This document shows, piece by piece, positions 32,557-55,436 of a stretch of DNA of 56,184 bases. The DNA lies in assembly GCA_039029335.1 (NCBI GenBank), contig JBCCGJ010000003.1, forward strand, positions 1 through 56,184, in the 5' to 3' direction. The notes under the pieces are model-generated. The model was not told the DNA's origin and did not search any database. It saw only the letters and a program-made list of their open reading frames with translations. How positions within the stretch are numbered: the first letter of the stretch is position 1; each line of letters begins with the position of its first letter. Source of the stretch: Actinomycetota bacterium (lineage in GTDB: Bacteria > Actinomycetota > Acidimicrobiia > Acidimicrobiales > SZUA-35). The position numbers and the translations under genes were made by a program.

Positions 32557-33114
32557 CTAGGGCGCCGGACGGGCGGCGTCCATGAGTTCTTCGATACCCG
32601 GTCGGTCATCCGGCCCGGCCCCCCAGTACCCGTACTCGAGTACACCGTCCGGTCCGATGACAAAGTCCCCGCCCAACTGCAGGGGGTCCTCCGTCGGTCG
32701 TGATGGTTTCAGTCTGCCACCTGGCCGGACCAGTTGCAGGTACCGCCGCAGGGCTCGAAGGCCCCAGACCCGTGCCACCGAACCGCGGCCGAGGCCATAT
32801 GCCCAGTACCCCCGGCGATCCGGATCACGAACCACCCGATAGGGGAGCGAGGTTCGCTCCACGTAACGGGTCAGGTTTGTGTCGTCGGTGAAGGTGACGA
32901 GGACCGCGTCGGTTTCGGGACCAAGTTCGTCGAGACGATCGCCGACCGCAATCGCATGTGCCGCACACGGCACTCAATGGATGTGCCGGTGAAAGATCAG
33001 GACAACCCTCCGTCCGAGATGGTCGGCCAGTTGCCACGGCGTGCCGTCCCGGTTGATCAGCTCCAGCGCCGGCGCCGTCCGACCGATGATGGGGCGGACC
33101 CCGGGAGCAGTCAC
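32557..33114 (-). CDS. Peroxiredoxin-like (AhpC/TSA, SelL-related) selenoprotein with UxxC motif
   Basis: GTG 33114 opens MTAPGVRPIIGRTAPALELINRDGTPWQLADHLGRRVVLIFHRHIH-TGA(32976-32974)-VPCAAH, in frame with the 32557-32973 ORF (DPDRRGY, QLGGDFVIGPDG). TACCGT -10 box 6 nt upstream. SECIS-like hairpin downstream of the TGA. Confidence 0.85.
32935..32955 (-). promoter_or_regulatory. Putative bacterial SECIS hairpin
   Basis: mRNA GCGAUUGC-GGUCG-GCGAUCGU: 8-bp stem including 2 GU pairs, G-initiated loop starting at nt 27 after the UGA. Confidence 0.6.
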
Positions 33115-45106: not shown

Positions 45107-45739
45107 ATGTCATTGCGTTTGGGAGATGCCGCACCGAACTTCACCGCGACCACCACCGATGGAGACATCGATTTCCATCAGTGGAAGACGGACTCCTGGG
45201 CGGTGCTGTTCAGCCACCCGGCGGACTTCACCCCCGTCTGCACCACCGAGCTCGGTCGGACCGCCGCGCTGAAGGACGGGTTCGCCGCCCGGAACACCAA
45301 ACCCATCGCCGTCTCCGTCGACCCGATCGAGGATCACCACGGCTGGACCCCCGACATTGCCGAGGTCACCGGATCCGAGGTCAACTTCCCGATCATCGCC
45401 GACCCGGATCGAACCGTTGCCGAGCTCTACGACATGATCCACCCCGGTGAGGGTGACACGTCGACGGTCCGGTCCGTGTTTGTCGTCGACCCGGCCAACG
45501 TCATCAAGCTGATCCTGACCTACCCGAAGTCGACCGGCCGCAACTTCGACGAGATCCTCCGGGTCATCGACAGCCTGCAGCTCACCGCCAACCATGACGT
45601 GGCAACCCCCGCGGACTGGGTGAAGGGGGAGCGGGTCATCGCATCGCCGGCGATGGCCACCGATGTCGCCCGCGATCGGTTCCAGAACCTCGAGGAGGTC
45701 AAGCCCTACCTCCGCTACGTGGACGACCCGACGGGCTGA
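45107..45739 (+). CDS. 1-Cys peroxiredoxin (Prx6)
   Basis: FSHPADFTPVCTTE, YPKSTGRNFDEILRVIDSLQ and ATPADW motifs. Confidence 0.93.
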   Translation: MSLRLGDAAPNFTATTTDGDIDFHQWKTDSWAVLFSHPADFTPVCTTELGRTAALKDGFAARNTKPIAVSVDPIEDHHGWTPDIAEVTGSEVNFPIIADPDRTVAELYDMIHPGEGDTSTVRSVFVVDPANVIKLILTYPKSTGRNFDEILRVIDSLQLTANHDVATPADWVKGERVIASPAMATDVARDRFQNLEEVKPYLRYVDDPTG

Positions 45740-52348: not shown

Positions 52349-52433
52349 GTTTGCACCGTAGAAAACGGCCGATGATGACTTCGTGAGGGCCGCCTTCATG
52401 TGTTCTTCACCTCCGCCGTGCGACAATGAGCCG

Positions 52434-53126
52434 GTGAGACTGCTGGTGGTCGAAGACGACCAATCGCTGGCCAAGGTCCTGGTGCGAGGCCTGACGGAGG
52501 AGGGCCACGCAGTCGATCACGCGGCAACCTCGGCGGCCGCGCTGGAGGCGCACGGCGTCCACCGCTACGACCTGGTTGTGCTGGACCTCGGCCTGCCAGA
52601 CGGGGACGGTCTGTCCATCTGTCGGGCCATTCGCGACGGCGGGGACCCCACGCCCATCCTCATGTTGACCGCCCGGGACGGCCTGTCCGACAAGGTGGCG
52701 GGCCTTGACGCCGGTGCTGACGACTACCTGACAAAACCGTTCGCCTACCCGGAGCTCGCCGCCAGGGTCCGGGCGCTGCTGCGGAGACCGAAGGACGCCG
52801 TTGGTCCGGTGCTGGAATGGGGAGACCTGAAGCTTGACCCGGCGGCCCACACGGTGTGGCGGGGGGCGATCATGATCCCGCTGACCCCGCGGGAGTTCAG
52901 CCTGCTCGACTTCCTGCTTCGCCACCCGGATGCGGTGTGCACCAGGGAGGACCTGCTCGAGCACGTCTGGGACGCTCACTATGACGGGCTGTCGAACGTG
53001 GTCGACGTCCACATCGCCAACCTGCGTCGCAAGCTGAGCCTGCCGGACCGACCGGACCCCATCGAGACGGTGCGGGGCGTCGGCTATCGGTTGGCGGGTG
53101 AGCAACGCTCGGAGCAAACCGCATGA
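52434..53126 (+). CDS. OmpR-family response regulator
   Basis: LLVVEDD, LDLGLPDGDG, GADDYLTKPF and ETVRGVGY motifs. Confidence 0.93.
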   Translation: MRLLVVEDDQSLAKVLVRGLTEEGHAVDHAATSAAALEAHGVHRYDLVVLDLGLPDGDGLSICRAIRDGGDPTPILMLTARDGLSDKVAGLDAGADDYLTKPFAYPELAARVRALLRRPKDAVGPVLEWGDLKLDPAAHTVWRGAIMIPLTPREFSLLDFLLRHPDAVCTREDLLEHVWDAHYDGLSNVVDVHIANLRRKLSLPDRPDPIETVRGVGYRLAGEQRSEQTA

Positions 53127-54304
53127 CCGATCGTTGGCGGATCGGGTGGACCGCGGTGGCGGTTGGTGTGGCGCTGGTGATCATTGCTCCACTCGGCTAT
53201 CTCGGTTTTCGACAGGAGATGGCAGGCATAAAGGCCGAGACCGAGGCCTGGGCGGTCTACAAAGTGGAGACCGCCCTGCTGGATCGGATCGCCGATGTGG
53301 ACCGGGACCCTCCGGACAACACGTGGCTGGTCAACACGGAGGGCGGTTGGTCCGAGCCTGCGGGGGAGACCTGGACGGAGCCACCGCTGCTCAGCCTCGC
53401 CGACGCCGCCCTCGGTGGCACGGCCACCCGGGAGTACAACTTCGAGGGCGACTGGTTGGCCTATGCGGTCTGGGTCGGCGAGGACAACGTTGTGGTGGCC
53501 GTCGTCGATCGAGGCGGTGAGATCGAGGAGATCGGAGCGGCCCGGTTGCGATGGTCGGCCCTCATGCTCGGGGCGGCATTGGTTGCCGGTTTTGTCGCCT
53601 ACCTGGTGCTCGGCCGGATGCAGCGGCCGGTTCGGCAGGCCCACGTGGTGAATCGGGACTTCATCGCCGACGCGGCCCATGAGTTGCGTACCCCGCTGTC
53701 GATCATCCAGGCCTCGGCCGGATTTGCACTTGCCAGGGAGCGGGACCCGGTGGACTATCGGGAGTCGTTGACCGAGATCCTGGACGCCAGCGAGCGGGCG
53801 GGGGCCAGCGTCGGTGAACTGTTGGAATTCGCCAGGCTGGAGGCCGGTCAGGCATCGCTGCGGCTGGCTCCGCTGCGGTTGGATCTACTGGTCGAGGAGG
53901 TGGCCGCCTCGGTTCGGGTGGAGAACGTCACCGTGCAGGCCGCCCCCGGCGAGGCGGTGGTTGTCGAGGCCGACTACAACCTCCTCCGTCAGGTGATCGA
54001 CAACATCACCCGCAATGCCGCGGCCAGGGCCGACAAGGTCACGCTGGCCACCAAGCTGGACGCCAGGGAGGCGATCATCGAGGTGGTCGACGACGGGCCC
54101 GGATTCGATCCCGGCGTGATCGATCACGTCTTCGAGCGGTTCCGTCGCGGTGATCAGGCGGGGTCAGTCGGCCTCGGCATGGCGATCGCCCGGACCATCG
54201 TCGAACTGCACAACGGCTCCTGCGCCGCGGCGAATCGGTCCGCGGACGAGGGCGGCGGCGCGGTGGTCACCATCCGCCTTCCCTACAAATCGTCGCTGGT
54301 CTAA
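53123..54304 (+). CDS. Sensor histidine kinase
   Basis: Two TMs, ADAAHELRTPL H-box, DDGPG and GLGMAIA motifs; ATGA overlap with the response regulator. Confidence 0.93.
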   Translation: MTDRWRIGWTAVAVGVALVIIAPLGYLGFRQEMAGIKAETEAWAVYKVETALLDRIADVDRDPPDNTWLVNTEGGWSEPAGETWTEPPLLSLADAALGGTATREYNFEGDWLAYAVWVGEDNVVVAVVDRGGEIEEIGAARLRWSALMLGAALVAGFVAYLVLGRMQRPVRQAHVVNRDFIADAAHELRTPLSIIQASAGFALARERDPVDYRESLTEILDASERAGASVGELLEFARLEAGQASLRLAPLRLDLLVEEVAASVRVENVTVQAAPGEAVVVEADYNLLRQVIDNITRNAAARADKVTLATKLDAREAIIEVVDDGPGFDPGVIDHVFERFRRGDQAGSVGLGMAIARTIVELHNGSCAAANRSADEGGGAVVTIRLPYKSSLV

Positions 54305-54350
54305 CTGCCGCCGTCTGGCTGGTCTCCACGTGTCGTACCCTGAAGGAACG

Positions 54351-54635
54351 ATGAGCTCCCCGGAGAAGAACAGCGACCGGATCGAACAGATCGACCTGTA
54401 CTGGCGGCCCGGCTGACCGTATTGCCTGGCTCTCAAGGCCGGTCTGCGGTTCGCAGGCATCTCAACCGTCAAACACAACATCTGGGACAACCCGGCGGAC
54501 GCGGCAAAGGTCCGCAGCGTGGCCAACGGCAACGAGACCGTGCCGACGGTTTTTATCGGCGGGCACGCCATGGTCAACCCGACCGCCCGCCAGGTGAAGA
54601 AGGCCGCCAGGGAACTGGCCCCGCATCTCCTCTAG
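54351..54635 (+). CDS. Mycoredoxin/glutaredoxin-like selenoprotein with UPYC active site
   Basis: MSSPEKNSDRIEQIDLYWRPG-TGA(54414-54416)-PYCLALKAGLRFAGISTVKHNIWDNPADAAKVRSVANGNETVPTVFIGGHAMVNPTARQV...LL-TAG. The TGA sits at the first Cys of YWRPGCxxC. GAAGGA RBS. Confidence 0.87.
54423..54459 (+). promoter_or_regulatory. Putative bacterial SECIS hairpin
   Basis: Either UGCCUG...CAGGCA enclosing GGCC-GGUCUGC-GGUU (GGUC at nt 25 after UGA), or GUCUGC-GGUUC-GCAGGC. Both give a G-initiated apical loop at SECIS-compatible distance. Confidence 0.55.
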
Positions 54636-54698
54636 CGGGAGCCCGAACGAACCGGCCAGGGTGGCGGCGCAACGAGGCGACGTCGGTAGGGTCGACGG

Positions 54699-55436
54699 GT
54701 GCACGAGATACACGAGCTATTGCGAGCCCACCGTTCGATCCGCCGGTTCGTCGATGAGCCGCTCGATCGGGACGTGGTGGCCGACATCGTCCGGAGCGGC
54801 CTGTCGGCGGCGACGTCCAGCAACCTGCAGGCCACGACCGTCATCCGGGTGACCGATCCGGACCACCGTCGGGCCATCTCCGAGGTGGCCGGCGGCCAGG
54901 AGCAGATCCGGACCGCAGGGGCGTTCCTGGTCTGGTGCGCCGACCTGAACCGCACCAGAGTGGCCTGTGAGCTCGCCGGTGGGTCGATGACGTCCGGTAT
55001 GACCGAACAGTTCATCATCGCCACGGTCGACGTGTCGCTCGCCGCCCAGAACGCCGTCGTGGCCGCGGAGGCTCAGGGCTACGGGATCTGCTACATCGGG
55101 GCCATCCGGAACGACCCGCAGGTGGTGGCCGACCTGTTGGAGCTGCCGGATCACGTCTATCCGGTGTTCGGGCTTTGCATCGGGGTGCCGGACCAGGACC
55201 CAGAGGTCAAACCTCGGCTGCCGATCGACGTGGTGTTCAAGGATGATGTCTACGACACCTCGGACGATGTCGAACGGATAAACGCCTACGATGCGACCAT
55301 CCGGGAGTACTACCGAACCCGGTCCGGCGGTACCAAGGACAGTTCGTGGACCGAGGAGATGGCTCGGCTGGTCGACGGGGAGCGGCGGCCGCACATGCGG
55401 TCCTTCCTGGCCGACCGGGGCTTTGAACTGCGATAG
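54699..55436 (+). CDS. nfsA: Oxygen-insensitive NADPH nitroreductase / flavin reductase (NfsA/Frp family)
   Basis: HRSIRRF, AATSSNLQ, CADLNR, GICYIGAIRN and KPRLP motifs. Confidence 0.9.
   Translation: MHEIHELLRAHRSIRRFVDEPLDRDVVADIVRSGLSAATSSNLQATTVIRVTDPDHRRAISEVAGGQEQIRTAGAFLVWCADLNRTRVACELAGGSMTSGMTEQFIIATVDVSLAAQNAVVAAEAQGYGICYIGAIRNDPQVVADLLELPDHVYPVFGLCIGVPDQDPEVKPRLPIDVVFKDDVYDTSDDVERINAYDATIREYYRTRSGGTKDSSWTEEMARLVDGERRPHMRSFLADRGFELR

Follow-up and report, generated by a model that had tools for sequence, protein, structure and literature searches.

What is encoded where a glutaredoxin-like reading frame carries a stop codon at the very position of its catalytic cysteine? The question is raised by a locus in a stretch of 56,184 nucleotides from an Actinomycetota bacterium of the order Acidimicrobiales (assembly GCA_039029335.1, contig JBCCGJ010000003.1), the whole of which is referred to here as the window. 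Comparative sequence evidence points, as the most likely answer, to a real and intact selenoprotein gene of the glutaredoxin type, with selenocysteine (Sec) in its active site. The features at the locus and around it are the following:

52383-53126: response regulator, 5' of the redoxin gene.
53123-54304: HisKA/HATPase_c sensor kinase, 5' of the redoxin gene.
54342..54348, + strand: purine-rich GAAGGAA just 5' of the ATG, read from the sequence.
54351..54635, + strand: complete coding sequence of a predicted Sec-containing, mycoredoxin-like glutaredoxin, 94 residues, ATG start and TAG stop, from sequence and translation.
54414..54416, + strand: TGA read as selenocysteine (U22), the putative attacking residue of UPYC, from alignment with the first Cys of CxxC.
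54423..54425, + strand: TGC encoding Cys25, which is the second residue of UPYC, the resolving one, and is conserved to at least 90% in the alignment.
54442..54458, + strand: candidate bacterial SECIS element (bSECIS) with a 7-bp stem and a GUU triloop, the loop 32 nt past the TGA, -8.6 kcal/mol.
54633-54635, + strand: TAG stop of the redoxin gene, read from the sequence.
54699-55436: NfsA-type nitroreductase, 3' of the redoxin gene (NF008033, 254.7 bits against a cut-off of 223).

Under genetic code table 11 the gene is split into two pieces, in the frames 54150..54416 and 54519..54635, and is therefore absent as one open reading frame. The preliminary description of this DNA had likewise reported the gene as missing from the list of open reading frames. 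The public gene call at the locus (P0002) is a 69-residue stump that starts after the TGA, without the fold's first strand or its active site. Other truncated public calls (P0004, P0006, P0007 and P0030; 67-76 residues, 78-83% identical) each begin 1-6 residues past the Sec position. The frame 54351-54635 contains a single in-frame TGA, at codon 22, and reading through it yields, as had been claimed, a complete redoxin of 94 residues in which every named motif is present: YWRPG-U-PYC at residues 17-25, NIW at 43-45, AAKVRSVANGNETVPTV at 51-67, with GNETVPTV at 60-67, and MVNP at 74-77. The GAAGGAA at 54342..54348 may serve as the ribosome-binding site; a scan for promoters and terminators between 54200 and 54800 found none.

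The gene had also been placed between a sensor kinase and nfsA, and it does lie there, with the HisKA/HATPase_c kinase 5' and the NfsA-type nitroreductase 3', the latter followed by a glyoxalase-like frame. Around the orthologue in genome G006, an ABC ATPase and an isocitrate-lyase-family gene are found instead; since the window and G006 differ in neighbourhood, no functional partner can be inferred from it. At position 54680, between the redoxin gene and nfsA, one base is missing in the contig from one sequencing run and an A>G change is seen there in the contig from another, which looks like strain variation outside the coding sequence.

The family assignment begins with Pfam, where the read-through product matches Glutaredoxin (PF00462) at 47.5 bits against a cut-off of 22.9. 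The narrower identity proposed earlier, a Sec-containing mycoredoxin/glutaredoxin, holds as to the nearest family and the nearest structure but not as to the curated threshold: the best of the 11 NCBIfam families matched at E<=0.01 is mycoredoxin (TIGR02200), with 78.5 bits, under its cut-off of 89.5. Eight relatives scanned with the same model (three Cys, five Sec) score 54.5-77.6 bits, and since the Cys relatives also fall below the cut-off, the shortfall is not this gene's alone. Named Cys homologues reach 63% identity and include a 'mycoredoxin' of Streptomyces, others being glutaredoxin-family proteins of Acidimicrobiales and Microthrixaceae assemblies. The best sequence match in the PDB is Mrx1 of M. 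tuberculosis (2LQO, E 1.6e-8), with its CGYC aligned to UPYC. An AF2 model built from 46 sequences (pLDDT 89.4) has a thioredoxin-type fold with strands at 14-18, 40-43, 66-69 and 72-75 and helices at 23-34, 48-57 and 79-89, residue 22 standing directly before the first helix. The closest structure to this model is again 2LQO (TM 0.77/0.82, rmsd 1.3 A over 79 columns), with glutaredoxins and NrdH ranking below it at TM 0.66 or less.

Could mycothiol be the co-substrate of such a protein? As described in the introduction of PMC6912445, mycoredoxins strip mycothiol from S-mycothiolated proteins, becoming mycothiolated themselves, and are restored by mycothiol, after which the resulting disulfide is reduced by the NADPH-dependent reductase Mtr. 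A comparable cycle can be proposed here. The TGA at 54414-54416 would be decoded by SelA, SelB, SelD and tRNA-Sec, with probable help from the 54442-54458 hairpin. If the protein works like Mrx1, U22 would attack as a selenolate, opening the mixed disulfide between a protein and mycothiol (or another thiol); the protein thiol would be freed and a Se-S intermediate formed on U22. A second mycothiol, or C25, would resolve this intermediate, and the disulfide left by the second-mycothiol route would be recycled by an Mtr-like reductase and NADPH.

Profile scores suggest that the mycothiol genes are probably present in the source genome. The proposed check for mshA-D and mtr gave a divided answer: MshD scores 190 bits, above its cut-off of 163.1, but the best matches to MshC (422 bits, cut-off 485), MshA (376, cut-off 462.5), MshB (203, cut-off 224) and Mtr (555, cut-off 636) all fall short, each of them well above the next paralogue, which for Mtr scores 281. 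With MshA, MshB, MshC and Mtr below their curated cut-offs, mycothiol use in the lineage is putative. The same genuine Sec redoxin might work outside mycothiol chemistry, as a selenol/thiol reductase that depends for its recycling on thioredoxin reductase or some other low-molecular-weight thiol. In favour of this are the full UxxC pair retained here, the score under the cut-off of the TIGR02200 mycoredoxin equivalog, four of the five mycothiol-pathway models under theirs, and the NrdH-type redoxins among the structure matches (TM 0.63-0.64). However, Mrx1 is the clear best match, 2LQO superposing at an rmsd of 1.3 A where the NrdH structures reach 2.2-2.7 A; no NrdH model is found among the 11 NCBIfam families at E<=0.01; and in addition to MshD the genome has an Mtr-like protein (G000:C429) scoring nearly twice its next paralogue. 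We consider a mycothiol-free role unlikely. As for the Mrx1-like cycle, the sum of these matches inclines us, modestly, towards mycothiol as the co-substrate.

The case for Sec itself turns on the TGA. The read-through protein was searched in the 60 nearest genomes and the source genome, of which 43 of 61 gave a match at E<=1e-5, and 44 loci were compared, namely the 30 best together with all those marked as having an internal stop (some 26 stop-free rows of lower score lie outside this set). By tblastn, the residue-22 column holds TGA in 12 loci and TGC or TGT in 32, the alternation between relatives that had been suggested as a check. Together these account for all 44 aligned loci at the catalytic-Cys column, and on this alignment the placement of the TGA there is beyond chance. 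Thirteen rows are flagged with one TGA; in 12 it stands at codon 22, and the thirteenth (G002:C45) has Cys at that position. The 12 Sec loci come from 12 of the 25 genomes of a single genus, and 11 of them belong to sister species with TGA at the same codon, which disposes of the possibility, raised at the outset, that the TGA is unique to this strain. None of the 12 other genera sampled in the family, and none of the 24 other families sampled in the order, had the Sec form, and a class-wide sample of 400 genomes, 78 with a match, contained no TGA form, although TAA or TAG occurred in three rows. The metagenome loci were Cys in 80 of 80 cases with no TGA form, under a peptide pattern that had C at the site, and the loci fetched from genome contigs were CPYC in 80 of 80, under a search pattern that favoured CPY; with Cys in the pattern, both scans are biased against Sec forms.

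The closest orthologue, that of G006 (66% identity), also has TGA at this codon. Between the two genes, codons 15-21 (DLYWRPG) encode the same amino acids with three synonymous and no non-synonymous differences, and over codons 23-94 the counts are 30 identical, 21 synonymous and 21 non-synonymous, the frame being free of further stops and of frameshifts. This pattern indicates coding selection on both sides of the TGA and excludes a nonsense allele of recent origin. The gene is covered by contigs of two sequencing runs, at depths of 11.2 and 7.28, and these leave 54414-54416 unchanged, so the objection that the reads might carry TGC or TGT failed; both runs come from a single study, and since one may be the source of the window, they are not fully independent. 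One run's contig has a synonymous T>G at 54551, showing that a slightly different strain retains the TGA.

What might mark this TGA for decoding? Published constraints on bSECIS elements, as set out in a 2026 review (PMC13188914), are a loop of 3-9 nt, a stem of at least 4 bp, a G in the first two loop positions, a spacing of 16-37 nt between UGA and loop, and a free energy of -7.5 kcal/mol or lower. The hairpin at 54442-54458 is the sole one after the redoxin TGA that fits them, marginally at -8.6 against the limit of -7.5 kcal/mol, and its geometry is similar to that of the hairpin in the genome's own selD (8-bp stem, GUC triloop, spacing 33). It probably helps to decode the TGA. The same filter is passed by 9 of 12 Sec loci and 11 of 32 Cys loci, and a one-sided Mann-Whitney comparison of Sec and Cys hairpins gives p 0.014, a significance overstated by the kinship of the rows. 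The fitting hairpin of the G006 orthologue lies at spacing 19, not 32, and the 67 nt past the TGA fold no better than shuffled sequences (z -1.15; 27 of 200 shuffles as good). The sub-clade of the window and G006 comprises two sequences only, too few for covariation. Thus, of the conserved hairpin looked for from the start, a candidate within the published constraints was found, but it is weak and its position is not conserved in G006.

Could the gene instead be dead? A CPYC paralogue with a TGC-to-TGA mutation might go unmade or yield nothing more than the 69-residue downstream stump. The change is of a single base, a Cys paralogue is available to cover the function, automatic gene calls yield only the stump, and the SECIS evidence is weak. 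Yet the 66%-identical G006 gene keeps the TGA in a frame that is otherwise intact, with synonymous-only change just upstream; 10 further sister-species loci and the strain variants of the two runs have it too; and the stump would be deprived of both strand 1 and active site. We judge a pseudogene or nonsense allele very improbable.

The machinery for Sec insertion, the presence of which had been named as a check, is encoded in the source genome. SelA scores 421.9 bits (cut-off 267.9), SelB 266.3 bits, or 293.8 with its C-terminal piece (cut-off 242.25), and tRNA-Sec 65.1 bits (gathering score 47), and SelD is likewise over its cut-off with 359.9 bits, its gene carrying an in-frame TGA of its own in GAGUGCK. 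With 520 contigs, 89% completeness and 5% contamination, the assembly is fragmented, and the sel genes are on contigs other than that of the redoxin; because selA also occurs in 24 of 24 further genomes from the genus and in 35 of 36 from the family, the system is a trait of the lineage and not a binning accident. Of the window's 66 long open frames, 46 end in TGA, among them those of the response regulator and of a neighbouring DUF1800 gene: this codon has not been reassigned and is otherwise a normal stop, the commonest in the window. Two further genes with an in-frame TGA are relevant here:

G000:C206:4435-5352: selD, itself a selenoprotein gene (GAGUGCK), with a strong hairpin after the TGA.
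Window 32785-33087, - strand: peroxiredoxin-like (AhpC/TSA) gene with a UxxC site, HIHUVPC, and an in-frame TGA at 32974-32976; probably the other hidden selenoprotein of the preliminary description.

An in-frame TGA occurs in 10 of the 16 AhpC/TSA matches in the source genome (L264, L265, L267, L268 and others), and in five of five such genes examined it stands at the catalytic position (TPGUT, TSGUT, WUPPC, WUPYC and HIHUVPC). The organism seems to have a large selenoproteome, mostly invisible to standard gene calling. Also in the window, at 45122-45508 (+ strand), is an AhpC/TSA-family match free of internal stops, which puts peroxiredoxin-like genes of Cys and Sec type within about 12 kb of one another. 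A scan of the window for UxxC and CxxU patterns returned 126 matches that were mostly noise, two that were translated being non-coding frames, and a pairing of Sec-glutaredoxin with Sec-MsrA, as in Clostridium, received no support, MsrA (PF01625) not being found in the 89%-complete source genome.

Read-through without selenium (by near-cognate Trp or Cys) or an assembly or sequencing error is hardly credible, for although contigs drop rare variants, those of two runs agree on the TGA, the genome has a dedicated Sec system and places TGA at the catalytic Cys of many other redox genes, and TGA is the commonest normal stop here. Sec insertion at 54414-54416 is, on the comparative evidence, very probable.

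A tree of the 44 loci resolves two well-supported clades, one of 10 rows (9 Sec) and one of 34 rows (3 Sec). In the latter, the window and G006 form a pair (support 92/92) and the third Sec form, from G010, is separate. This third form (L048, G010:C5:3365-3622; FWRPG-U-PFC) sits inside the Cys-rich clade, apart from the window/G006 pair, which suggests a separate Cys-to-Sec switch. Parsimony counts four changes between Cys and Sec, and the starred branches of the tree force at least two. The source genome also has a Cys copy (G000:C11:27301-27570), which groups with the Cys copy of G006; the Sec gene is thus additional to a Cys paralogue and does not replace it.

The 10-row clade, a second and deeper mycoredoxin-like group with YWRPG-U-I/P/Q-x-C followed by VSWVNIW, has Sec in 9 of its loci (L050-L058, from nine sister genomes) and was not found in the window's own genome. 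Of the nine Sec loci, six show, about 21-22 nt (in one case 32 nt) past the TGA, a hairpin whose loop of 3-5 nt starts with G; four of these have a stem or stacked stem of 7-8 bp, and the stem sequences differ between two sub-groups. RNAalifold on eight loci of this clade returned -4.13 kcal/mol with a positive covariation term, a result not used as support because the hairpins of the two sub-groups are one column out of register.

Taken together, the reading we think probable as a whole is that of an intact gene for a Sec-containing oxidoreductase of glutaredoxin fold in the Mrx1 clade, its TGA decoded as Sec and its cycle resembling that of Mrx1. Sec/Cys swaps are common in thioredoxin-fold proteins. 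A wider model, which we offer tentatively and would place slightly short of an even chance, is that this genus has built a selenium-dependent branch of mycothiol chemistry: Cys and Sec would have switched at least twice, and Sec paralogues beside Cys copies would speed up de-mycothiolation or shield it from over-oxidation. The source genome holds both forms, Sec and Cys, a clean natural pair on which the catalytic advantage of Sec could be tested. Should Sec insertion and mycothiol coupling both prove true, selenoprotein biology would be extended to the mycothiol system of the Actinomycetota, and if the selenium-dependent branch is true, it would be the first link between selenium and mycothiol. 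Because gene callers cut this gene in half, the redox equipment of the organism is mis-annotated, as are many other genes in the genome.

How new is this? A link between selenium and mycothiol-type redox chemistry was not known to the preliminary description as experimentally described, and no paper on one, or on a Sec mycoredoxin, was found in a search that drew mostly on titles and the beginnings of abstracts; supplementary tables could list such genes. The 2026 review on prokaryotic selenoproteomes (PMC13188914) does not mention mycoredoxin, mycothiol or Actinobacteria; glutaredoxin and mycoredoxin are absent from the main text of the deep-Sep and BSepDB papers; and a Frankia paper has mycoredoxin and selenocysteine only in unrelated places. 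A 2026 preprint on Actinomarina, another actinobacterial lineage, reports about five selenoproteins per genome, glutaredoxin and mycothiol being unmentioned in it. Sec-glutaredoxins are known, however. The same review, citing Kim et al. 2011, treats Sec-glutaredoxin (UxxC) as an established, experimentally supported selenoprotein family; glutaredoxin selenoproteins are tabulated for Geobacter, Alkaliphilus and Moorella in PMC1794560, and glutaredoxin and glutaredoxin-like UxxC sequences in the GOS table of PMC2398784. With the class already known, the novelty is narrower than first implied, and what appears from sequence to be new is the Sec form within the mycoredoxin clade.

Three known systems lie closest to the protein. 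With the Sec-glutaredoxins (Grx1 of Clostridium oremlandii, Grx of Geobacter and Moorella) it has in common the PF00462 family, a UxxC site with Sec first and the in-frame TGA mechanism. Those proteins are glutathione users from Firmicutes, Deltaproteobacteria or unassigned marine reads, whereas the window protein falls in the actinobacterial mycoredoxin clade, in a genome with mycothiol-type genes. The UXX-star selenoproteins are also small and glutaredoxin-like, but their models match far below cut-off (NF041212, 42.2 bits against 66; NF041211, 25.0 against 100; NF047338, 24.6 against 97). Their name presumably denotes a Sec three residues from the C-terminus, whereas in the window protein Sec stands in the N-terminal active site. 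Mrx1 (M. tuberculosis Rv3198.1, PDB 2LQO/2LQQ, TIGR02200) has the same beta-alpha-beta-alpha-beta-beta-alpha fold and CxxC position, and the two proteins have in common the GN(E/R)TVPTV loop and the NP motif. They differ in that the window protein scores under the curated TIGR02200 cut-off and its mycothiol activity is putative, and above all in the attacking residue, which would be Sec (UPYC) in the window protein and is Cys in Mrx1, in CGYC in M. tuberculosis and CPYC in the Streptomyces type.
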